The notes under the pieces are model-generated. The model was not told the origin of the DNA and made no database searches. It was given only the letters and a program-made list of their open reading frames with translations. A DNA stretch of 64,000 nucleotides from Patescibacteria group bacterium (GTDB lineage: Bacteria; Patescibacteriota; Patescibacteriia; JAHIZJ01): contig JAQTMH010000003.1 in assembly GCA_028714495.1 (NCBI GenBank), forward strand, positions 136,496 through 200,495, given 5' to 3'. How positions within the stretch are numbered: the first letter of the stretch is position 1; every line of letters starts with the position of its first letter. Both the position numbers and the translations under genes were made by a program. Positions 4,424 through 40,331 of the stretch are shown one piece after another.

Positions 4424-5041
4424 TCAATAGAATTTAATCGATTGTAACGTTTGATCAATTAAATTAACAGCGTTCTGAAACTCGATTGAATCAGGTTTAT
4501 CATTTTCAATAAAGGCTCGCGCCTCCCAAGAGTTATCGCCTTCAAGGATATAGTATGTGATCGAGGAGGTTTTATAAGCATTTTTATCATTTACAATCCA
4601 TAACCTTCTCCCGCTCCAATTATTTTTTTCTACAAGCGTATTCGATCGGATTATTTCATCTTCCGTATTTGCATTAATCCACTCATCAAGGGATAAATTA
4701 TTAGGATATTTGGTGTTTTTATATATGCTCACTTTGATCAACGGTTCATTTAGTTGTTGTCCAGAAATTTCATCAATTCTACTAGTACGTTCCTGGGATG
4801 TGAACTCAAGGGCAGTTAATAACGGACCGACGGAATAGTAAGGAATCCAGGAGCTCGGATATTCCATTTGTATTCCATATTCCGCAGCGTTAAATGTTTT
4901 CCATATTAGGGTGCTACTATTTGTGTTCGCTGGATTATTTTTTGTGTCTGATGGCCAGAACAATATAACACCGCAAATAACAATAATTACGGCGCCGATG
5001 GTAATTACTAATAATTTATTTCGTGTAATCATAATTGTCAA
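4424..5041 (-). CDS. membrane-anchored hypothetical protein
   Basis: N-terminal TM helix followed by a soluble domain. No recognisable motif. Confidence 0.4.
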   Translation of the reverse strand: MTIMITRNKLLVITIGAVIIVICGVILFWPSDTKNNPANTNSSTLIWKTFNAAEYGIQMEYPSSWIPYYSVGPLLTALEFTSQERTSRIDEISGQQLNEPLIKVSIYKNTKYPNNLSLDEWINANTEDEIIRSNTLVEKNNWSGRRLWIVNDKNAYKTSSITYYILEGDNSWEARAFIENDKPDSIEFQNAVNLIDQTLQSIKFY

Positions 5042-8023: not shown

Positions 8024-8140
8024 AGACTCTTAGATTCGCCAGGAACAGAAAAACATAGATTTGTGGATCACCTCCTTCCTATTTGGGTTGTAATGAACAA
8101 AAAAAGAGTCCAGGAAAGCCCGTCTCTTTCTATGTTTAGA

Positions 8141-8178
8141 ATAACCCCTTGAAAATAGGCGTCAAGGGAGGGTTATCC
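8141..8178. promoter_or_regulatory. conserved imperfect palindrome upstream of paralog B (also upstream of paralog C)
   Basis: ATAACCCCTTGA-aaataggcg-TCAAGGGAGGGTTAT. In mRNA sense it embeds TTGACG-N16-TATTCT. Same element at 19878-19916. Confidence 0.4.
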
Positions 8179-8232
8179 ACAATGTTCCTTTTGACATATT
8201 GTATACTATAGCTAAATAAATAACTGAAAATT

Positions 8233-8739
8233 ATGCCCCGATTCCAAAAAGTAACTCAAACAACACTCATTGCGGGTTTCGGTGTTATCATGCTGCTTGT
8301 CCTCGGCTACATTGTATATCAAGACCAATTTGCCCGATTCGATGTACAGCATCTTAAAGCTGATCCAAATTTTACATATACTGACACATTATCGTGTCGT
8401 GTCGAATATTCTACATTTAAGAAGATAGGCGAAGCGTTGATGGACATTTACGCCGAAAGGGATTTTACACTGTCAAACCTGAATACTGATCAGCCAAAGT
8501 TGCGAATAAGTAACTTTGAGCTTGCGTTGAAAAAAATACGTGAGAGTAATAATGCCATAACACTTCAAACAGAGCCCCTCGCACCTGACGATACTTCAAT
8601 ACAAACGATACAAGTACTCAAAGACAGGGGTACATTCGTAAGGGCATATATGGGTACTAGCCAGTACTTTGGCGCTCGTGAAAAATATTTCCCTGATTTA
8701 TTCCAAAATATTATCGCCCAAAAAGGCCGATGCAAATAA
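8233..8739 (+). CDS. membrane-anchored hypothetical protein
   Basis: N-terminal TM helix. 168 aa. The only plus-strand ORF in this part of the window. Confidence 0.4.
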   Translation: MPRFQKVTQTTLIAGFGVIMLLVLGYIVYQDQFARFDVQHLKADPNFTYTDTLSCRVEYSTFKKIGEALMDIYAERDFTLSNLNTDQPKLRISNFELALKKIRESNNAITLQTEPLAPDDTSIQTIQVLKDRGTFVRAYMGTSQYFGAREKYFPDLFQNIIAQKGRCK

Positions 8740-14843: not shown

Positions 14844-15341
14844 TCATGAGAAAAAACGCCGGATGAGGGTAGTATTTATATAGAGGTATGGGTATACTTC
14901 ACCCTCCTTTGCCAGCTTGTGTTTAATCGGGTTGTATTTCAAATATTCTATATACCTAACAAAATCATCCTCATCTCGAATAATGCGGTCATGGAAAGAA
15001 GATTGCCAATAGAATCTCCTACCGGGGGGCAAAGGATGATCATCCTTTGCCCCAGACAACAAGATATTTGCGCTCCTTGATGTGTTGCGCTTAATATTAT
15101 GCATGATTTCAGAAATAGTATATTTGCCTTGCGGTTTAATCATGATGTGGAGATGGTCGGGTATGAATACATAACCAAACAATAAAAACCTCATCCATTC
15201 CTGAGCCAGGTGGATTTTGCACATGCCTAACCGCGCCAGGCCGACATTTTGAAAATAAGGATACTTATCCTTTGTTTTTGTTGTCACAAAATAGACTGCG
15301 TCTTCCAAATAAATCCTTTTTGCAAGATGTTTGTGTAACAT
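14844..15341 (-). CDS. REP-associated tyrosine transposase (IS200/IS605 TnpA-like, HuH)
   Basis: HuH motif IPDHLHIMI. C-terminal RFYWQSSFHDRIIRDEDDFVRYIEYLKYNPIKH is typical of the RAYT/Transposase_17 family. 165 aa. Inserted between 7TM paralogs. Confidence 0.72.
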   Translation of the reverse strand: MLHKHLAKRIYLEDAVYFVTTKTKDKYPYFQNVGLARLGMCKIHLAQEWMRFLLFGYVFIPDHLHIMIKPQGKYTISEIMHNIKRNTSRSANILLSGAKDDHPLPPGRRFYWQSSFHDRIIRDEDDFVRYIEYLKYNPIKHKLAKEGEVYPYLYINTTLIRRFFS

Positions 15342-19850: not shown

Positions 19851-20014
19851 GAAAGCCCGTCTCTTTCTATCTACAGAATAACTCCTTGAAAATAGGTGTC
19901 AAGGGAGGGTTATCCACTGACAAAAAATTGGCGGTTAAGCGCAGGCCCCAAAATGTTGTTTTAATTTTAATAAATAAAAAAGGGGCGCGAACTTGTGTCC
20001 GTGCCCGCTTGTGG

Positions 20015-23000
20015 TTAATGGACGATGATGAGTCTCTTCTCTGCCGGGTAGTTATCCGCCCGGATTTTCACGAAATAGATGCCGCTTGGCACCACTGAGC
20101 CGTCAGAGTTTCTGCCATTCCAGATGATGGCGTGCGGACCCTGGGCCAGCGGTTCATCAAGCAAACTCTTCACTTTTCGGCCGGTGATATCAAATACGTC
20201 AACTCGAACCGGCGACTCTTTCTCCAGGGTAAATGAGACTGTGACGGGAGCGCTTGAATTCGCCGGATTGGGCGAAAGCATAAGTCCCGTGCCGACAATC
20301 GAAGCAGCCAGAGACTGCCTTCCCAGCCACGCGTTTTTCGCCCAGACCGAGTTTGGCGACTTACCGGCAAAGATATAGAGAGTGTCAGCCTCATTGGGCG
20401 TTGTCACGGTGAAAAGCTCGCCAATCTGATGGTCAATCAGCCGGCCAAGATTGAAGTCCTTCCACAGATGGAACTTCCCTGTCCGCCTGTTGCCGACAGC
20501 CACGGTTACCCGACAGGGCGTATCAGCTGAGAGGACGATGTTCAGTTTATACGCTTCACTCCGAGTTAGGGTAAAGCCGCCTTGTTTCAGCTCATAGTCG
20601 TACCAATTCGTTCCGCCGTTGACTAAGAGCCAGCCGTTATTGTTCTCCATCCGGAAATCCGCCCAGCGAAGTTGTGGATACCTCGCCAGCCAGCAAGCTC
20701 CGGGTGTCGAGAAATCGCCGTTTCCGAGGAAGCTTCCTTCATCGCGTTCGCAAGCGATCGGCACGGGCAGTGTCTGTTTCCACCGGACGCTCACATCCTT
20801 GAGCCAGACCGAACGGTCAACCCAGCCCAGGTAGAAAGTAAGCCGGCCATTGGGATCAGTGACATTGGACCTGAACGGCAGAGTAAGGCGTCGTTCAGTC
20901 GAAGTGAGTGGTACTTCTTCCCAGAGCACGTGGTTGCCGCGCGAATCCTCGAGCGAAACCACTACAGTTCCCGGATCGTTGGTTACTCCCGTGAAAACCA
21001 CCTCGAGATCGCTGTTGGCGGTCAGGTAGACCCAGTCCTGTGAGAGTTTGACCTCGTACCATTCATGCGGTCCATTGATGTGGCCTTCAAACAGGCCGTT
21101 GAAGTTGGTGACAACATAGGGCAGGTTGGGATGTTCCACAGTCCAGCAACTCTGGCCGTCGAACTGACCGTTGCCGATGAAACTGCCTGAATCGTCGCCT
21201 GAGCAAACTGGTTGCGGAGGCGGGGTTTCGGCATAACGTACAACAACATCCTTGAGCCAGACCGAACGGTCAACCCAGCCCAGGTAGAAAGTAAGCCGGC
21301 CATTGGGATCAGTGACATTGGACCTGAACGGCAGAGTAAGGCGTCGTTCAGTCGAAGTGAGTGGTACTTCTTCCCAGAGCACGTGGTTGCCGCGCGAATC
21401 CTCGAGCGAAACCACTACAGTTCCCGGATCGTTGGTTACTCCCGTGAAAACCACCTCGAGATCGCTGTTGGCGGTCAGGTAGACCCAGTCCTGTGAGAGT
21501 TTGACCTCGTACCATTCATGCGGTCCATTGATGTGGCCTTCAAACAGGCCGTTGAAGTTGGTGACAACATAGGGCAGGTTGGGATGTTCCACAGTCCAGC
21601 AACTCTGGCCGTCGAACTGACCGTTGCCGATGAAACTGTTGGGGTCGTCTGAGGAACACTCTTCGGGACCACCATAGCCGCCGCCCTCACCTTCTTCACC
21701 ACAGGGGGGAAGTTCCTGTATCTCGTCGACTCGGTTGTTGCGCCAGATAAAACGGTATGTCACATCACGTCCGCGGTGATAGAAATCGATCGCCCCCAGC
21801 CCATCAATTACATACTCGTCTCGTGTCGGGCAACCAAATTCAGCAGGTCCACCGTGACTTAGGTAGTAATCAAGGAAGCCGGTCCTGACGCAGTAGGCCT
21901 CATTGGTAGCGCAGGCATTGCCGTCGCCATTGTTCGGATCGTACATGACCATAACCAGCCCAAAAGCGGCGTGGTCGAAAAACTGGACATCGTAGCCATT
22001 CCACTGGTGAACGTGCGCCGGATGCCAGTCGTATTGGATGGCATGGCCAAGCCACTGTGAACCGCCGTTGCGGTTGAAGCAATCGACAAAGCGGTAACTG
22101 ATGTTATTGTCGTTGCGCCATCCGTCGGCAAACCAACCTGGAGCGCAAGACCCAGGAGGATACGGCCTAAGGTATGGATTGTATCCATCCCAGAGACGTT
22201 CTCCTCGCACGTACTCCTGCACAGATGAGACGTTAGCGATGCCGTAGGTATTCTGGTAGTAACCCCGTCGTTCCGGAGGCACATAACGCTCATCATTGAT
22301 TGGCATGCCTTCGGGCGAAGTTGGACCGCCACGTTGGGCCCAGCCCTTCTGATTGTAGTCAGATCGGCTGTTTTCCCAGAAGTCATTCCGGACAGTGTAC
22401 GCGTGAGTTGCTCCGCCGTAGACATCCAGCAAGATACCGCAGTTGCCAAATTCTCCTCCGCCGAAGTTCTTGCACAGACAGTTGGTCGGCACATGATTGT
22501 CGCCGTAGACCGGCCGCTCGCCTTCGGGGTGATAGAAATGGATGTCCCACTGGAGACGGCCGTACTTGCGGTCGCCGCCGTTTGAGTTGTACTCATCATT
22601 GAAGAGCGAGGCATAGTCGCCTGGTCGATAGGCCGGGTTGCGAAGCCAGCCTTGGACCGCATAGCTACCCCGTGAACTCATAGTCAGCTTGCCGTCCTGG
22701 CCGCGCTGAAGCGTATGCGTAAACCTTCCTGTCACGCTCCAGTTTTGCTCGACATTGCCGACTTCGTAGAGTCCGCTATCATCAATCTTGTTCACCCAGT
22801 CCACTAGCGCCACATGACCGTGTCCACCGCCAGAGTAGCAAAGGATGTCGCCGTGCTTGGGCAATTCCTGGGTTCCACTATTCTCATAGGCCACCAAGCC
22901 TTTGGTTCTGGCCGAACCGTAGTATTCATCGCCATCGCCGCTCCAATCCGAATGCTTGTGCACCCGATTTACCAGTTCAACACAGTGGTATTGACTTCCG

Positions 23001-23176
23001 TAATCTGTCATATTTCCGCACCCCAGACATCCATGTGTACACCCGTGATAGTACCCATTGTAACACACGTTTTCGTTGTCGAATGTCGTCAATACGTCAC
23101 CGCACTCAAGAGCCGAGGATTGCGCTTGGCAAAAAATGCCAAGGCACAACATAGCGAACAGAATCCTGAATGACAT
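20015..23176 (-). CDS. giant secreted cell-wall hydrolase: N-terminal CHAP domain, three CBM4/9-like modules (two identical), C-terminal beta-sandwich sorting-type domain
   Basis: Signal peptide. CHAP Cys (YHCVELVNRV) and His (GGGHGHVALVDWV). 151-aa module CSGDDSGSFIGNGQFDGQSCWTVEH...WLKDV repeated exactly. C-terminal ...VTVSFTLEKESPVRVDVFDITGRKVKSLLDEPLAQGPHAIIWNGRNSDGSVVPSGIYFVKIRA resembles Por_Secre_tail/FlgD-Ig-like domains. Confidence 0.62.
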   Translation of the reverse strand: MSFRILFAMLCLGIFCQAQSSALECGDVLTTFDNENVCYNGYYHGCTHGCLGCGNMTDYGSQYHCVELVNRVHKHSDWSGDGDEYYGSARTKGLVAYENSGTQELPKHGDILCYSGGGHGHVALVDWVNKIDDSGLYEVGNVEQNWSVTGRFTHTLQRGQDGKLTMSSRGSYAVQGWLRNPAYRPGDYASLFNDEYNSNGGDRKYGRLQWDIHFYHPEGERPVYGDNHVPTNCLCKNFGGGEFGNCGILLDVYGGATHAYTVRNDFWENSRSDYNQKGWAQRGGPTSPEGMPINDERYVPPERRGYYQNTYGIANVSSVQEYVRGERLWDGYNPYLRPYPPGSCAPGWFADGWRNDNNISYRFVDCFNRNGGSQWLGHAIQYDWHPAHVHQWNGYDVQFFDHAAFGLVMVMYDPNNGDGNACATNEAYCVRTGFLDYYLSHGGPAEFGCPTRDEYVIDGLGAIDFYHRGRDVTYRFIWRNNRVDEIQELPPCGEEGEGGGYGGPEECSSDDPNSFIGNGQFDGQSCWTVEHPNLPYVVTNFNGLFEGHINGPHEWYEVKLSQDWVYLTANSDLEVVFTGVTNDPGTVVVSLEDSRGNHVLWEEVPLTSTERRLTLPFRSNVTDPNGRLTFYLGWVDRSVWLKDVVVRYAETPPPQPVCSGDDSGSFIGNGQFDGQSCWTVEHPNLPYVVTNFNGLFEGHINGPHEWYEVKLSQDWVYLTANSDLEVVFTGVTNDPGTVVVSLEDSRGNHVLWEEVPLTSTERRLTLPFRSNVTDPNGRLTFYLGWVDRSVWLKDVSVRWKQTLPVPIACERDEGSFLGNGDFSTPGACWLARYPQLRWADFRMENNNGWLLVNGGTNWYDYELKQGGFTLTRSEAYKLNIVLSADTPCRVTVAVGNRRTGKFHLWKDFNLGRLIDHQIGELFTVTTPNEADTLYIFAGKSPNSVWAKNAWLGRQSLAASIVGTGLMLSPNPANSSAPVTVSFTLEKESPVRVDVFDITGRKVKSLLDEPLAQGPHAIIWNGRNSDGSVVPSGIYFVKIRADNYPAEKRLIIVH

Positions 23177-23297
23177 GTTACACCTCCGTTTGTCCTTTTT
23201 CGGTTACCGGTCTTGATCTAGCCTCTATGTGTAAGTAGGTCTCGTTTACCTACATTTTTCAATGAACGTTCTGATCTATCTATATGATCATTACTGA

Positions 23298-23933
23298 TCA
23301 ATCAGAAAATTGAATGGTTTCTAGTATTTTGTCAAAGTATCTTGTTACTATATCAGAATCATATGGAATACCACTAACACCAAATATTATGTCGTCCTTC
23401 GGTATACAGACATAAGTGGTATTGTCGTTTTGATGTTCGGGGTAGTTGAATTTTATATATGCACTCTTTATTCCATCAATGGTAATTATCTTCTCTAGTA
23501 AGTAGTTTTTTGGTGAATCCCAATTACGCCCATATTTCGCTTTTTCTTTACACCAGGTTAAGATATCACCACCTTGGTTCTCATCAACAGAACCAATCAG
23601 AATTTCTGGTTGTATAGAAGAGCCTGTTATTTCTTCTGTTAAATACACTCCTAGTCTGTCTTCTGTCATTATTAATTCCGAAGGGTATTTGAATTGAAAG
23701 GCTGGTTTGAATTCTTTAAAAATATATAGTGTTGATTTAGAAGAATCATATGTCGGCCATTTTGAAGTGTCTATGTTTGTGTTAATAACTGAGTTTGTAT
23801 TTGTATTAGATTTATTGTTTCTATTAACTTTTTGACTGCTTATCCACCACACCACTCCTCCAGCCAGCAAAATGACAACAACAATAAAGATAATGGCAAC
23901 TGTTGAAATTCCTTTTTGATTAAGTGTTTTCAT
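23298..23933 (-). CDS. membrane-anchored hypothetical protein
   Basis: N-terminal TM, N/T-rich linker. 211 aa. Confidence 0.4.
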   Translation of the reverse strand: MKTLNQKGISTVAIIFIVVVILLAGGVVWWISSQKVNRNNKSNTNTNSVINTNIDTSKWPTYDSSKSTLYIFKEFKPAFQFKYPSELIMTEDRLGVYLTEEITGSSIQPEILIGSVDENQGGDILTWCKEKAKYGRNWDSPKNYLLEKIITIDGIKSAYIKFNYPEHQNDNTTYVCIPKDDIIFGVSGIPYDSDIVTRYFDKILETIQFSD

Positions 23934-24165
23934 TGGTTATTCTCCCTGCTTAATAAATAAACGACGGCAACTCCCTTGGGTCCCGTCTTACCCTTTTTGG
24001 CTAAGGTTATTGGATTGTCTGGATTTTTTCGATGCATATAAAATGATATCTCGTTTTATCAGGGCTGTCAAATAATTATAGAGTTTAAACTAACCGCTGG
24101 CAATCGTACAAATGACAGTCCATCAATATTTTTTATGCCGATTTTTGTGCTGTGGATAATCTATA

Positions 24166-24194
24166 TTGACTGCCAACTGCCATCTTGTTATAAC
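24166..24194 (+). promoter_or_regulatory. near-consensus sigma70-type promoter
   Basis: TTGACT-N17-TATAAC, about 25 nt upstream of the tRNA-like gene. Confidence 0.5.
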
Positions 24195-24219
24195 AGGGCT
24201 ATTATCTTTTGGTTCTTTC

Positions 24220-24295
24220 GCAACCGTAGCTCAGCCAGGGAGAGCACCCAACAACAACAAAAGGGATGTCCCGGGTTCAAACCCCGGCGGTTGCA
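24220..24295 (+). tRNA. tRNA-like gene with intact acceptor/D/T arms but aberrant anticodon arm (possible pseudo- or non-canonical tRNA)
   Basis: GCAACCG-TA-GCTC-AGCCAGGGA-GAGC-A ... CCGGG-TTCAAAC-CCCGG-CGGTTGC-A pair perfectly. The anticodon arm is CCCAA-CAACAACAA-AAGGG: only 3 G-C pairs, A/A mismatches and a 9-nt CAA-repeat loop. No encoded CCA. Confidence 0.4.
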
Positions 24296-24340
24296 AATGC
24301 GGTCAAACGCGCTTACGGATGGATTTCCGCCAAAGGCGGA

Positions 24341-24364
24341 CCCTGAACTCTATGTAGTTCAGGG
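24341..24364. repeat. REP-like hairpin CCCTGAACT-ctatgt-AGTTCAGGG
   Basis: Same architecture and loop (ctatgt) as the hairpin at 19725. Confidence 0.5.
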
Positions 24365-24395
24365 CAAATCCCGCCGGCGTCAAGAGATCCTTCTA

Positions 24396-24430
24396 GACTC
24401 TTCGTTCAACGAAACGTAGAGTCTTTTTTT
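24396..24430 (+). terminator. rho-independent terminator
   Basis: GACTCTTCGTT..AACGAAACGTAGAGTC hairpin followed by TTTTTTT. Confidence 0.6.
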
Positions 24431-24485
24431 ACTTTCGAGGTAGGCCCATTTTTTAAAAAACAAGGGTGAAAATTATATATATCAC

Positions 24486-24499
24486 CTTATCGCGATAAG
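24486..24499. promoter_or_regulatory. 14-bp palindrome CTTATCGCGATAAG (copy 1, inside 20-bp direct repeat)
   Basis: Overlaps the arsR stop codon. Part of the 20-bp repeat tatcaccttatcgcgataag. Confidence 0.5.
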
Positions 24500-24780
24500 T
24501 TTTTCCTGTTTATTATTGACTCTGTGTCTATTCCGTCCGCGATACTGAAATTCACCTCAGCGCCAACGCGTTTGCCAACTATCAGACCAGAACGGAACAA
24601 TAATTGCATATGACGTGATACGGCAGACTGACAGATTCCTAGTTCTTTGACTATTTCCATGCCGGTGCGTTTACTTAATGACAATAACTCAAGTATTTTA
24701 AGACGCCGTTCGTTTCCCAACGCTCGGTAAATCAAGGCGGTTTTTCGTAAATAAGGATGGGTATACATAAAAACGGGCAT
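24487..24780 (-). CDS. ArsR/SmtB-family HTH transcriptional regulator
   Basis: 97 aa. LGNERRLKILELL...MEIVKELGICQSAVSRHMQLLFRSGLI is a winged-helix ArsR-like HTH. Confidence 0.65.
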   Translation of the reverse strand: MPVFMYTHPYLRKTALIYRALGNERRLKILELLSLSKRTGMEIVKELGICQSAVSRHMQLLFRSGLIVGKRVGAEVNFSIADGIDTESIINRKNLSR

Positions 24781-24848
24781 AATATCCCGTCAAATTGATC
24801 ATATTACTTTTACAATCAATGGTCAAGTTATGTCTTGTTGTCTATCAC

Positions 24849-24862
24849 CTTATCGCGATAAG
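24849..24862. promoter_or_regulatory. 14-bp palindrome CTTATCGCGATAAG (copy 2, putative operator)
   Basis: About 70 nt upstream of the arsR start. Identical 20-bp context to copy 1. Confidence 0.5.
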
Positions 24863-24880
24863 CTAAATACTACGTTCCGC

Positions 24881-26686
24881 CTATTCCACCACCGCCTTTA
24901 TCCGCCTCACGCCGGCTGAAGAAGCTTCTTCTTTGAGAATTTTGAATTTACCCACCAGCTTAGTGTTTGACACGTGCGGCCCGCCGCAGATTTCTTTTGA
25001 AAAATCGCCGATCAAATATATCGAAACCTTGTCTCCGTATTTTTCACCGAATAAGCCAATGGCTCCGATTTTTCGCGCTTCCTCGATCGGCAAGATTCTC
25101 TTTTCCACGGGTATGCCAGCCGCGATTTTTTCATTTACAATTTCTTCGATTCGGCGCAATTCGTCACTCATAACTTTCTTCGGGTAGGTGAAATCGAAAC
25201 GCAATCGTTCGTCAGTAATATTGCTCCCTTTTTGCCCAACGCCATCGCCCAGAACTTCCCTAAGCGCCTGATGGAGCAAATGCGTGGCCGTGTGCATCTT
25301 TATCACCCGCTCGCTGTGATCAGCTAGGCCACCGGCGAATTTCTTTTCCGCGCCTTGCCGGGAAAGCTCCCGGTGGGCTATTTCCGCTTCGCGCCATTCC
25401 TCGTCGTTCAGAGTCACGCTGTGGCGCTGAAGCTCCTCTTCAATCAACTCCTTGGGGAATCCGTAAGTCTGATACAAGTCAAAAGCGACCTTGCCCGGAA
25501 AAGCCCCGCGCTCTTTCAGGCTAAGTTCCTTCTGCATTATTCTCAAGCCCTGATTCAGCGTCTGGGCGAATTTTTCTTTCTCATTTTTCAGGTTTTCGAA
25601 AATGAAATCCCTTTTTTCAACCAAATGGGGGTAGGTCTGGCCGTAAATCTGGATTACCTTTTCGGCCAAGGGCGCAAAAATATCATCGGTAATGCCCAAT
25701 TGCAGACTGTAGCGGTAAGCCCGGCGGATCAGCCGGCGTACGATATAGCCGCGTTCCACGTTTGATGGCTGAATCCCATCGGCAATAATGAAAACCGCGG
25801 CTTTAACGTGATCAGCCACGACGCGTTCGGCCATTGTGTCTTTAATTTGCGACAGGTTATTAATTATAGTAATAAGCGGCTCGAAAAGCTCGGTCTGATA
25901 TACCGAGTCCAAACCGTTAATCACCTGAAGCGTCCGCTCAATGCCCATTCCCGTATCAACATTTCTCTGGTCAAGCGGCAAAAACTTGCCCTCGGCTGTT
26001 TTGTTGTATTCCATAAAAACATCGTTCCAGATTTCGACGAACCGGCCGCAGCCGCAGTTGGGCTCGCACTCGTCGCCACGGCCCAGCGAACACCCTTTGC
26101 CCGTATCATAAAACATTTCGGTATCGGGACCGCACGGTCCGGTTTGTCCGGCCGGCCCCCACCAATTATCCTTCTTGCCGTAGAAATATATCCGCTCTTT
26201 CGGGACGCCAACCGATTCCCAAATGCCGGCTGATTCTTCATCCCGCGCCGCGTCTTCGTCGCCACCAAAAACCGACACGCTCATCCGCTCCGGATCCAAG
26301 CCCAGCCATTTTTTGTCAGTCAAGAACTCCCAGCTCCATTCAATCGCCTCGGTTTTAAAATAATCGCCGAGCGACCAATTTCCCAGCATCTCAAAAAACG
26401 TCAGATGGTGGTCGTCGCCGACTAAATCAATATCGCTGGTCCGCAGGCAGCGCTGATAATCTACCAGACGGGTGCCGGCCGGATGGTCCTCGCCCATCAA
26501 AAACGGCACCAGCGGATGCATGCCGGCCGTGGTAAATAAAACCGTCGGATCGTTTTCCGGTACCAGTGAAGCCGAGGGAATGAAAGCGTGTTCCCGGCCA
26601 CGGAAAAATTCTATGTATTTTTGCCTTAATTCTTCAGCTGTCATAAATGTAGTATAGCGGTATTTCAAGCCTGAATCAATTCTCAA
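24881..26686 (-). CDS. alaS: alanine--tRNA ligase, short form (catalytic + editing domains, no C-Ala domain)
   Basis: LFTTAGM, FEMLGNWSLGDYFK, editing-domain HTATHLLHQALREVLG. True start is probably the internal M (MTAEELRQKYIEFF). Confidence 0.85.
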   Translation of the reverse strand: MRIDSGLKYRYTTFMTAEELRQKYIEFFRGREHAFIPSASLVPENDPTVLFTTAGMHPLVPFLMGEDHPAGTRLVDYQRCLRTSDIDLVGDDHHLTFFEMLGNWSLGDYFKTEAIEWSWEFLTDKKWLGLDPERMSVSVFGGDEDAARDEESAGIWESVGVPKERIYFYGKKDNWWGPAGQTGPCGPDTEMFYDTGKGCSLGRGDECEPNCGCGRFVEIWNDVFMEYNKTAEGKFLPLDQRNVDTGMGIERTLQVINGLDSVYQTELFEPLITIINNLSQIKDTMAERVVADHVKAAVFIIADGIQPSNVERGYIVRRLIRRAYRYSLQLGITDDIFAPLAEKVIQIYGQTYPHLVEKRDFIFENLKNEKEKFAQTLNQGLRIMQKELSLKERGAFPGKVAFDLYQTYGFPKELIEEELQRHSVTLNDEEWREAEIAHRELSRQGAEKKFAGGLADHSERVIKMHTATHLLHQALREVLGDGVGQKGSNITDERLRFDFTYPKKVMSDELRRIEEIVNEKIAAGIPVEKRILPIEEARKIGAIGLFGEKYGDKVSIYLIGDFSKEICGGPHVSNTKLVGKFKILKEEASSAGVRRIKAVVE

Positions 26687-38186: not shown

Positions 38187-38634
38187 TTTCTTTTTTTAAA
38201 ATTTTTTGGCTGACTGTTTCCATTTTTTCCCTCTCGCTCTTCCGGGAGTGACTGTAATCCAGGAGATGAAGCAAGCTGTGCAAGGCGTGGTATTTCACAG
38301 ACCAGGAGTAAGCCAGGTTGTTTTTATGAGCGAACTTTCTTATTTCCGGCAAACAGAGAAATATCTCGCCCAAAAAATCCTTTTTCTGGGCCCCGAAAGC
38401 TTTTTTTATTGAAAACGGCGATCTGAAACAAAAAGACAAGGTAGTGGTGGGATGATTTTTTTGCCGGTAAGCGCGATTTAGCTTCTGCATTCTGCTGGCC
38501 GAGAGCAGAACCACTGAGATTTCGGTCCGGGGTGGAATTTTTAAATAGCGACTGGCTGGCTTCAGCACGGCTTTGATCAAATGCTTTTCTTTGTCTGGCT
38601 GGCCGGCGGCTAAGGTGCTAATTTCAACTTTCAT
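38173..38634 (-). CDS. ybeY: rRNA maturation endoribonuclease YbeY
   Basis: HALHSLLHLLDYSH zinc-binding motif. Confidence 0.7.
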   Translation of the reverse strand: MKVEISTLAAGQPDKEKHLIKAVLKPASRYLKIPPRTEISVVLLSASRMQKLNRAYRQKNHPTTTLSFCFRSPFSIKKAFGAQKKDFLGEIFLCLPEIRKFAHKNNLAYSWSVKYHALHSLLHLLDYSHSRKSEREKMETVSQKILKKENAVK

Positions 38635-38648
38635 GGGACAATTATAGG

Positions 38649-40331
38649 CTACCTTAGGTTGGGGTCGACGGATTCATTATTCAGTAAAGCTGGCCCGGCT
38701 ATCGGACTTGAATCACTATTCGCTTCCGAGTTTGTTTGGGTGTTAGTATTGGCATTTAAATTACTATTGGTGTTGCTGTTCGCGTTGGTATTGGAATTTA
38801 CATTGCTGTCAGTCCCCGGGCCTTTGGGCACATCAGTTAGCGTGAAGTTCTTGACCATCATTTGGAAGGTCGAGAGAAAACTGGCTTCGGTTCGATTACC
38901 AATATTGTAGGTGATAATATAGATCACATTTTCCTTGCCGAGATAGTAAGTCATCTGATCAAGGCTGCGGACTCCCACCAAACTGCCAATTACGATCTCA
39001 TCAATGGCCGTCGGATCAATACTTGGCGAATAGGTTAGATACCACTGCTTCGGCGAGAGCCGCTCGGGGTTATCTTCAACAATAATCTCTATGAATTCAC
39101 TCGTATCAGCTGAAAAAGTCACGTTCGAACCATCAGCCATGGCGTTGCGTACCAGCCAAGTCGTGGGATAAAGGACTCGATAATTATAAAGTTGACTGTC
39201 AAAAATCTTCACCAGACCCGACGCCTCCAGCCGAGCGCCTCCTGCCGCCAAAGGGTTATAGCCGCCAATCAGTTCGGCTCCGTCTAGATAGCTGTCTCCG
39301 TCCGTGTCAGGCTTGGCTGGATCAGTTCCGTACATCACTTCTTCGGTATTGGTCAAATCATCACCATCATCGTCGTCGCTGCCGACCGGAGGATTGATAT
39401 TTATATTGGCATTGGTATTTACATTGACATTCTGGTTGAGATTGGTATTCGAATTAGCGTTCGTATTAATATTTACGTTTTGGTTTTTGTTGGTCGGGGT
39501 TGGGCGATCAGTGTTATATTTCTTTATTCTCACCAGGAACTTATCGGCCCAATCTTCAATCTCATTCCACTTTGTCAATACACCCTGTCGAATTTCAATC
39601 TTGATTGATCCGTAAACATATTCCCAGTAAAAACCCAATTCGATCAGGGAGACTTCTTTGTTTACGTAAAGATACGAATCATCACCGACCGCGTCGTGGT
39701 TATTGAAGTCACCCTCATCTTGCTTAACCAACTGGTTTTTTTCTTCTTTTTTTGCTTCAAAAACCGCTAGGGCGTCACTGGCTGAATTGGTTTCATAGGC
39801 TGACACAGTGATAATAATATTATTTTTGTCTGTTTCTTCATAAGTAATGTATTTCCTGGCTAAATCCACGGCCACTTCTGACTCCGTCGTTGAATCTAGG
39901 CTGGCGTCTGACTCCTGATATTTTTCATAAGCCTGCCCCAGATCAGCTTTATTCAGAAGAACGTCAGTTAATTCTTCATACTTTTCGACATTGGTATTAG
40001 CGTTGGTGTTGGCGTTTTGGTTGACGGTGTTGGTATTCTGGTTCGCGGTATTGGTGTTTTGATTGGCGGTATTGGTATTATCGTTCGTCTTGATAATCCG
40101 ATTGAATAAGAATATGGCGGCCAATATTAAAAGCGCTACCACCACCAGTATAATAATATATATCAGCCAGTGGTCTTTTTTACCGTCCCGGCCGTGGCGC
40201 GTTAAAAATTTATCCGGCATGGTTCGGATTTCTTCGGTTTTTACTTCAGCTTCAATCAGAGGATTTGCCAGAGGTGACTTTTCCGTCGCCTCATCTTTCG
40301 TCTTGGTCTTTTTTTTGCCTAGTCCAAACAT
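38649..40331 (-). CDS. membrane-anchored surface protein with Asn/Thr-rich low-complexity tracts and TSP3-like Ca-binding repeats
   Basis: N-terminal TM. NTNTANQNTNTANQN repeats. DTDGDSYLDGAELIGGYNP. Confidence 0.5.
   Translation of the reverse strand: MFGLGKKKTKTKDEATEKSPLANPLIEAEVKTEEIRTMPDKFLTRHGRDGKKDHWLIYIIILVVVALLILAAIFLFNRIIKTNDNTNTANQNTNTANQNTNTVNQNANTNANTNVEKYEELTDVLLNKADLGQAYEKYQESDASLDSTTESEVAVDLARKYITYEETDKNNIIITVSAYETNSASDALAVFEAKKEEKNQLVKQDEGDFNNHDAVGDDSYLYVNKEVSLIELGFYWEYVYGSIKIEIRQGVLTKWNEIEDWADKFLVRIKKYNTDRPTPTNKNQNVNINTNANSNTNLNQNVNVNTNANININPPVGSDDDDGDDLTNTEEVMYGTDPAKPDTDGDSYLDGAELIGGYNPLAAGGARLEASGLVKIFDSQLYNYRVLYPTTWLVRNAMADGSNVTFSADTSEFIEIIVEDNPERLSPKQWYLTYSPSIDPTAIDEIVIGSLVGVRSLDQMTYYLGKENVIYIITYNIGNRTEASFLSTFQMMVKNFTLTDVPKGPGTDSNVNSNTNANSNTNSNLNANTNTQTNSEANSDSSPIAGPALLNNESVDPNLR

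Follow-up and report, generated by a model that had tools for sequence, protein, structure and literature searches.

The closest described counterpart of the element reported here appears to be tRNA-Other of Bacillus cereus (Ataide 2005; Rogers 2012), a pseudo-tRNA with a readable Trp (CCA) anticodon, whose T-box role was tested via that anticodon (PMC3399842). It is reported to be poorly aminoacylated in vitro (with lysine) and to be absent from polysomes (PMC3399842). Here, we analysed a tRNA-like gene located at positions 24220–24295 of a 64,000-nucleotide (nt) stretch of contig JAQTMH010000003.1, called the window below and meaning that whole stretch. The flanking proteins place it in a metagenome-assembled genome (MAG) of Patescibacteria, within the candidate phyla radiation (CPR), and the neighbourhood is chromosomal and ordinary. 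The metagenomes of the source samples are SRR22315508 and SRR22315509. The gene keeps an intact tRNA body whereas its anticodon arm has been replaced by a trinucleotide repeat. It is probably a disabled, dispensable tRNA copy (pseudo-tRNA) which would still be expressed, a reading to which we give a probability of roughly 0.55. Similarly to tRNA-Other, it is a chromosomal tRNA-derived gene that would not be used in translation, it lies at the edge of a strain-variable region and it may form part of a longer structured transcript. It differs in that tRNA-Other has a readable anticodon, whereas the gene of the window has a fully canonical body in which a slippage-prone repeat has destroyed the anticodon arm alone.

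Other RNAs share part of these characteristics. The staphylococcal tRNA-Gly species serving the Fem transferases possess a normal anticodon arm and are efficiently charged. The likeness to these cell-wall tRNAs is a tRNA shape with a role outside decoding, and the window contains nearby genes of cell-wall hydrolases (M23 and CHAP) sharing the promoter box; however, the RNA of the window is expected to be uncharged, and no Fem- or MurM-type gene was present within ~15 kb on either side (9–40 kb of the window). Transfer-messenger RNA (tmRNA) has an acceptor and a T arm and no anticodon, as here, together with a G3:U70 pair for alanyl-tRNA synthetase (AlaRS), a reading frame for the tag peptide and pseudoknots, whereas the 3:70 pair in the window is A:U and the “loop” measures 13 nt. 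The sufD/sufA6-type frameshift suppressors, with an 8-nt loop, resemble the gene by their enlarged anticodon loop and differ by their 5-bp stem, U33 and four-base anticodon, none of which it has. Typical tRNA pseudogenes show scattered decay or truncation. The likeness to ordinary tRNA pseudogenes and fragments at recombination or integration hot spots lies in the operon of the relatives, with its fragments, insertions and anticodon swaps, and in the adjoining variable region; the difference is that the damage in the window is limited to one arm and that the expression signals are conserved.

A tRNA body with a replaced anticodon arm

The features of the locus are as follows.
24151–24159 (+): conserved upstream box TGTGGATAA, exactly complementary to the DnaA-box consensus TTATCCACA, at 6 nt from the -35 hexamer
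24166–24194 (+): promoter, -35 TTGACT at 24166–24171, 17-nt spacer, extended -10 TGtTATAAC with the hexamer TATAAC at 24189–24194
24220–24295 (+): tRNA-like gene (pseudo-tRNA), 76 nt, CCA not encoded, 46.3 bits with the Rfam tRNA model
24247–24265 (+): replaced anticodon arm CCCAACAACAACAAAAGGG, 19 nt, 3-bp C-G stem and 13-nt A/C-only loop
24296–24394 (+): structured 3' trailer, ~100 nt, small hairpin at 24299–24310 and Y-shaped element at ~24317–24394
24395–24430 (+): intrinsic terminator, stem at 24395–24424 followed by seven T
24487–24780 (-): gene of the ArsR family with a helix-turn-helix domain (Pfam HTH_5), convergent with the tRNA-like gene, synteny anchor
24881–26686 (-): alaS, short form of ~590 aa (Pfam tRNA-synt_2c and tRNA_SAD), synteny anchor

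The score with the Rfam tRNA model was well above the gathering score of 29, with an E-value of 1e-8 in a local search and 1.1e-6 over the whole window. This match was obtained only with permissive filters, and the gene was missed both by a default-filter Rfam run and by default ARAGORN. The acceptor stem (GCAACCG/CGGTTGC, discriminator A), the D stem (GCTC/GAGC, with the D loop AGCCAGGGA) and the T stem (CCGGG/CCCGG, with the loop TTCAAAC) comprise 7, 4 and 5 bp, and these 16 pairs are all Watson–Crick. The variable loop is ATGTC (5 nt), a long variable arm being absent, position 20 is a G and the 3:70 pair is A:U. The tertiary core is complete (U8, A14, G15:C48, G18, G19, A21, G53:C61, T54, T55, C56, R57 and A58), and the 9-23-12 and 13-22-46 triples are also canonical, so that the tRNA fold with perfect acceptor, D and T arms announced by the original prediction was fully recovered. 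In an alignment with three tRNA-Thr orthologues, these three helices were 100% paired, with five pairs changed on both sides (compensatory), as compared to 75% for the anticodon helix.

The arm CCCAACAACAACAAAAGGG lies between the D and variable regions, flanked by GGG. Beyond its three C-G pairs, it shows A/A mismatches, and its loop corresponds to (AAC)3 followed by AAAA. U33 is absent and there is no defined purine at position 37 (R37). Thermodynamic folding kept only the three C-G pairs and left the 13-nt loop open. In the sister MAG L003 (GCA_028717285.1), whose AlaRS is 98% identical to that of the window, the arm has one repeat unit fewer and measures 16 nt, with a 10-nt loop. Because the two arms differ by 3-nt steps, their length can never be 17 nt, and the loop would have no fixed reading geometry. 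The covariance score, the acceptor, D and T stems and the core bases are those of a canonical tRNA; the 5-bp anticodon stem and the 7-nt loop with U33 and purine 37 are lacking. The gene thus combines tRNA ancestry with a structure incompatible with decoding, which is one of the marks of a pseudo-tRNA, and the anticodon arm had indeed been replaced, one of the options of the original prediction, in an otherwise undecayed tRNA-derived gene.

It had also been suggested that the RNA could be a non-canonical tRNA such as a frameshift or quadruplet decoder; the same hypothesis covers any other unusual tRNA still active on the ribosome. The perfect body and expression signals would suit such a role, and ARAGORN, in a relaxed and intron-permitting mode only, called a “tRNA-Val(aac)” with a 2-nt intron. 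We regard this anticodon call as a forced fit, an artefact of the fitting procedure; the relaxed search had been proposed as a check. Natural frameshift suppressors retain a 5-bp stem and an 8-nt loop, and a frameshift or quadruplet decoder would be expected to show an intact stem and an 8- or 9-nt loop of constant length. Here there are three pairs and a loop of variable length, and the arm differs by 3 nt between two nearly identical genomes. Since the arm measures 19 or 16 nt, never 17, and is devoid of U33, codon reading, including that of quadruplets, is implausible from this geometry. The decoder hypothesis was abandoned as very improbable. Two further candidates were rejected. An intron-containing tRNA would require a group I intron of ~200 nt or more, as opposed to an arm of just 19 nt, and Rfam gave no group I intron match. 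A tmRNA is contradicted by the A:U pair at 3:70, and none was reported by ARAGORN or Rfam.

Charging of the RNA is probably poor or nil. Among the synthetases that do not depend on the anticodon, that for Ala needs G3:U70 and those for Ser and Leu need a long variable arm; as both are absent, no charging is expected from these three enzymes. The Thr, Val and Arg synthetases depend on anticodon bases according to established identity rules, and these bases are missing.

The alternative that the locus is not an RNA gene can be almost entirely set aside. An ATG-initiated open reading frame (ORF) of 94 aa (24135–24419, with a QQQQ run) covers the region, and the CAA indel is in frame. However, the start of this ORF precedes the promoter, a 22-nt insertion shifts the frame of its counterpart in L003, which ends with another C-terminus, and the substitutions readable from the two translations change the amino acid. 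The frame shift and the score with the tRNA model led us to consider the ORF as spurious. An assembly artefact is excluded because the locus was identical in two further assemblies, from Logan, and present in the second MAG.

The orthologous tRNA operon and its lesions

Using alaS as bait, related loci were retrieved. In more distant relatives, with AlaRS 63–71% identical, a small tRNA operon is present downstream of alaS on the opposite strand. It comprises tRNA-Glu, a UCA-anticodon tRNA, tRNA-Met and tRNA-Thr(AGT) in L006; a tRNA-Met fragment, tRNA-Thr(AGT) and a degenerate Asp-like tRNA in L007 and L008. In L021, tRNA-Glu and tRNA-Thr(CGT) are found near alaS, the latter with the acceptor and T arm of the L007 tRNA-Thr and a different terminator. 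The last tRNA before the shared terminator is tRNA-Thr(AGT) in both L006 and L007. In L007, an uncalled homologue of the ArsR gene (53% identity, E = 1e-28) separates alaS from the tRNA, as the ArsR gene does in the window, and the order alaS, arsR, convergent tRNA is common to the two loci. This homologue, together with the common terminator core and the common promoter with its TGTGGATA box, establishes the tRNA-like gene as the positional orthologue of the last tRNA of the operon, a normal tRNA-Thr in related genera. The original prediction proposed that orthologous loci showing a normal tRNA, with decay elsewhere in the present copy, would count against it: the normal tRNA was found, and the decay was not.

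The TTGACT-N17-TATAAC promoter had been predicted ~25 nt upstream of the gene, which starts 25 nt past the -10 hexamer. It was not listed by a consensus promoter scan, the reason being that the -10 ends in C. Its support comes from its conservation across four related lineages: in the promoter alignment of the window, L003, L004, L006 and L007, the TGTGGATA box is invariant, and TTGAC, the 17-nt spacing and TAwAA are likewise conserved upstream of the orthologous tRNA operons, including operons of normal tRNAs in related genera. The window, L003, L006, L007 and L094 have in common a terminator core, G[AG]CTCTTCG...GAG[TC]C, ahead of a T run. The expression signals are therefore intact, as had been claimed from the window alone.

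The composite GTGGATAA-N5-7-TTGAC occurs three times in the window (24151–24159; 8161–8180 and 19898–19917, both on the minus strand) compared to 0.03 expected, and once more in L006 (11452–11471). Promoters of this type precede the tRNA operon and genes of the M23-peptidase type, and they are conserved across genera. The box may be the site of a shared regulator. A replication origin at this DnaA-like box was considered and rejected, as there are just two perfect boxes in 64 kb, without a cluster or a skew switch.

The operon tRNAs of the relatives are themselves frequently damaged. In L004 (GCA_964594455.1; also L005), two tRNAs at ~8068–8290 (-) carry GC-rich hairpin insertions: one, a tRNA-Trp(CCA), has a T loop enlarged by a ~29-nt hairpin; in the other, a ~31-nt hairpin occupies the D loop and the anticodon loop, CTCTAA, measures 6 nt. 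Rfam recognised them only in part (32.1 and 17.4 bits). In L007, the tRNA-Met is a truncated 5' fragment, next to the degenerate Asp-like tRNA. The most informative pair was L006 (8040–8480, -) and L094 (4400–4935, -; coverage 3.6x only), whose AlaRS are 92% identical. Outside the anticodon arm, the bodies of three of the four tRNAs that they have in common are the same or almost the same, with further differences in the T arm of the Thr-body tRNA, and the tRNA-Glu is unchanged over 77 positions. By contrast, the anticodon arms are much more divergent than the leader. In L006 the anticodon of the U73 (Cys-like) tRNA is UCA, and in L094 this tRNA has a rewritten 16-nt arm with the 6-nt loop CGCAAA; the L094 tRNA-Met has one anticodon-stem strand rewritten and a 20-nt hairpin in the T loop; the anticodon of the Thr-type tRNA is AGT in L006 and CGG in L094. 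L094 also carries an extra tRNA-Val. Evidently, to judge from these alignments, the tRNA lesions of this clade arrive as blocks in hairpin regions and not as scattered point changes.

Several observations were made on these tRNAs. The tRNA-Thr(AGT), with A34, lies at 8069–8140 (-) in L006 and 8354–8426 (-) in L007/L008, with one anticodon-stem mismatch each. It is conserved between two genera, and bacteria rarely have A34 in tRNAs other than tRNA-Arg. The UCA tRNA of L006 (8235–8308, -) is a class-I tRNA with U73 that would read UGA, and seven of 13 neighbouring genes end in TGA; it would be a copy of low activity or else a naturally occurring opal suppressor. A class-I tRNA with a short variable loop, U73 and the anticodon GCT was found in L022 (8761–8833, -), a Kerfeldbacteria MAG. 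By its anticodon it is called a tRNA-Ser, without the long variable arm which bacterial tRNA-Ser has. A T-arm-like hairpin with the unusual loop YTCTAAY (motif GGYTCTAAYCC) is restricted to the syntenic spot between the tRNA operon and alaS (L004 7811–7821, L006 7813–7823, L007 8276–8286, all -); it is absent from the window and corresponds to no Rfam family. In L004 and L006 it lies within an RNA of ~200 nt that has a separate promoter and contains a hairpin with a GCAA tetraloop, and in L007 within the degenerate tRNA-Asp-like element. A palindromic hairpin, CCCGGA-loop-TCCGGG, is shared by the trailer apical loop of L003 (3402–3418) and the T loop of the L094 tRNA-Met (4614–4631), which points to a hairpin element or to templated insertion, with loops of structured-RNA genes as the presumed target. 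A gene for an IS200-type (Y1) transposase is located at 14844–15341 of the window.

A probable disabled copy and a possible selected scaffold

We propose that the ancestor was an ordinary tRNA-Thr, the last gene of a small tRNA operon convergent to arsR-alaS. In the lineage of the window, its 17-nt anticodon arm would have been overwritten by an A/C-only (AAC)n tract, whose length would then change by replication slippage, with three units in the window and two in L003. Because the promoter, the tRNA body and the terminator are intact, the RNA is most likely still transcribed; RNase P would cleave it at G1, and after trimming and CCA addition it would adopt the usual L-shape, with a floppy loop of 10–13 nt instead of an anticodon. 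In this model, the gene is one of several operon tRNAs hit by block lesions in different lineages, and not a new type of decoder. Since lesions come as blocks, a perfect body beside a destroyed arm is the look expected of a recently disabled copy, presumably without function. On the statement of the original prediction that the gene is “probably not a dead pseudogene”, the evidence is divided: the body is undecayed and the signals are intact, but the orthologues are tRNA-Thr, and the operon tRNAs of the relatives are equally pristine outside their block lesions, which makes a pristine body weak evidence of function.

Several points weigh against this reading. No substitution was observed in 73 body positions shared with L003, compared to 4.6–7.2% in the immediate non-coding flanks, 11 of 240 nt in the upstream non-coding DNA and 33 of 399 four-fold sites (8.3%) in alaS and mnmA. 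The probability of observing none is 0.002–0.03 depending on the neutral proxy, which hints at purifying selection on the body after the loss of the arm. This test is weak because local divergence is very uneven, ranging from one difference in 394 nt in the arsR block to ~17 in 67 nt in the terminator zone after the trailer, the most divergent part of the locus. The promoter and terminator show no decay, and CPR genomes are small and usually lose dead DNA. Finally, the acceptor GCAACCG with A73 was commonest in tRNA-Arg, not tRNA-Thr, among metagenome tRNAs, so that the ancestral amino-acid identity is not certain; the position points to Thr.

Alternatively, the L-shaped body may have been selected for a job independent of the anticodon, the gene being a recruited, non-decoding scaffold. 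For example, the RNA might donate aminoacyl groups outside translation, it might act on a tRNA-binding enzyme or toxin as a decoy or sponge, or it might be regulatory, in which case the open A/C-only loop (AAnAAnAA or ARN-type) would be a platform for single-strand binding. The unchanged body with its 16 intact pairs and tertiary bases, the conserved and apparently strong promoter, and the near-identical tRNA bodies of L006 and L094 with their divergent anticodon arms all speak for it. On the other hand, no partner gene was found within the same ~15 kb on either side, with housekeeping, histidine kinase and peptidase genes only, and neither tRNA-dependent transferases nor reverse transcriptases were present there. 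Without G3:U70 and a long variable arm, the Ala, Ser and Leu synthetases should not charge the RNA. The loop length varies even between two near-identical genomes, and the element is known in one genus only. The 10-mer ACAACAACAA of the loop is also present at 23875–23884 (+), 370 nt upstream, inside a gene for a 211-aa protein. Because the 10-mer lies on the plus strand within that gene, its mRNA would be complementary to the loop. This targeting was rejected as probably due to chance, as both the gene and the match are absent from L003. Recruitment of the scaffold is therefore possible, and clearly less probable than simple disablement.

The structured trailer opens another possibility. The tRNA fold could be a processing handle which recruits RNase P and 3' enzymes in order to release or stabilise the trailer RNA (24296–24394) as the actual product, an arrangement known from mascRNA/MALAT1 and from small RNAs linked to tRNAs. 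The trailer with the terminator folds at -54.5 kcal/mol, far better than shuffled sequences (z = -5.9). Where two hairpins and a rho-independent terminator had been predicted, the terminator was retained and the trailer was found to consist of one small hairpin and a branched, Y-shaped element. L003 shows the same architecture in spite of a 22-nt hairpin inserted in the apical loop, and the trailer core differs from that of the window at five of 86 positions, all in loops. L007 also possesses a structured tRNA-like element between the tRNA and the terminator. Conversely, no trailer homologue was detected outside L003, Rfam gave no convincing family (the best match being STnc220 at E = 0.29), L006 has no trailer, its terminator directly following the tRNA, and the highly divergent zone begins just past the trailer. 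We consider this explanation unlikely.

A broader version of the scaffold hypothesis takes in the whole clade: the bodies of the operon tRNAs would be kept as selected non-decoding scaffolds while their anticodon arms are rapidly rewritten to non-reading or re-targeted forms. The forms that may illustrate this are the (AAC)n loop, the 6-nt loops, the GCAA tetraloop, the UCA anticodon in a genome using TGA stops and the CGG anticodon on a Thr body. This remains a tentative proposal, somewhat more doubtful than recruitment of the present gene. If true, it would point to a function residing in the body, for instance that of a decoy for anticodon-directed nucleases or a tRNA-binding partner, or to a directed diversification of anticodon arms.

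Genomic setting, wider search and significance

On the alaS side, the locus continues with the short-form alaS, mnmA, ispG, ispH, glmS, a release factor gene, htrA, ftsZ and ftsA. Listed on the other side are the ArsR-type gene, the 211-aa hypothetical protein, a CHAP/Ig-like secreted protein, M23 peptidases, histidine kinases and the IS200-type transposase. Compared to the window, L003 shows three differences in the promoter. The homology between them breaks ~240 nt upstream of the tRNA-like gene (window 19985–23980 versus L003 3792–7472). In this region the window encodes the 211-aa protein and a 1053-aa protein with CHAP and Ig domains and a type IX secretion system (T9SS) tail, whereas L003 encodes a 171-aa protein, a radical-SAM/SPASM enzyme and a methyltransferase; an integrase was not observed. 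The single difference per 394 nt mentioned above covers the ArsR gene and the spacer to alaS (24487–24880), the neighbouring DNA differing by 4–25%. For the ArsR-type gene, which is uncalled in L007, no NCBI gene call turned up and the only database record came from Logan. Within alaS, the segment 25180–25279 shows 21 mismatches to L003 per 100 nt, compared to 0–7 in every other 100-nt stretch, and resembles a patch left by recombination. The 211-aa protein and ArsR had no homologues beyond those of the window and the sister MAG, and a DNA similarity search with 24100–24500 against genomes, plasmids and phages of E. coli found nothing.

Other tRNA-shaped genes with a AACAACAA arm were searched for with the pattern GAGC-N3-7-AACAACAA-N8-24-GGTTCRAANCC. 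Two matches in IMG/VR and nine in 185,579 GTDB species genomes, a collection containing neither MAG of the genus of the window, were all due to chance (coding or terminator sequences), and none was tRNA-like. The protein database contains just two genomes of this genus, and as far as these data go the repeat-armed tRNA-like gene appears confined to one CPR genus.

A search of metagenomes with a pattern built on the acceptor stem gave 59 loci, mostly canonical tRNA-Arg, of which five had odd anticodon arms and at first resembled a family. Three of these (L025, L056 and L073) contain the same tRNA-like gene of 70–71 nt with a conserved leader, and L056 lies in a prophage, in a region matching Lacticaseibacillus A2-type phages. 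A family uniting the tRNA-like genes of L025, L056 and L074 with that of the window through the acceptor GCAACCG was rejected, as their leader, D loop, variable loop and T arm are unrelated to it. L074 shares only the anticodon arm with the phage gene, and L024 is found within an array of further odd tRNAs. The phage tRNA-like has a shortened anticodon arm, GTGGCATAAGCCTAT or TGGCGCTTAGCCA, and the conserved leader ccccatctgacactggg; in L056 (6159–6229) it is located between the genes of an ArpU-like activator and of the terminase. It recurs in IMG/VR contigs; the loci concerned are L025, L056, L073, L083–L085, L087–L091 and L093, together with ~38270–38846 of Lactobacillus phage A2. Phages of the Lacticaseibacillus casei group match the region, and the element is unannotated in the phage records. 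The L024 array (154–590, -), on a 2.3-kb metagenome contig, comprises a 77-nt tRNA-like with a UUCG hairpin for anticodon loop, an 86-nt “tRNA-Met” and a 78-nt tRNA-Pro.

If the gene of the window is just a disabled tRNA, it matters mainly for annotation, as ARAGORN and default Rfam miss such a gene or could force a false anticodon upon it. It also indicates that an anticodon arm can be lost to a trinucleotide repeat without loss of a perfectly folded, and probably transcribed, tRNA body. If the body is truly selected, the gene would provide, from the poorly understood CPR bacteria, a clear natural case of a tRNA scaffold taken over for a function other than decoding, and the related operons would offer a comparative system for understanding why only anticodon arms get rewritten. 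The recurrent rewriting of anticodon arms across this clade appears to be a more intriguing lead than the element itself.

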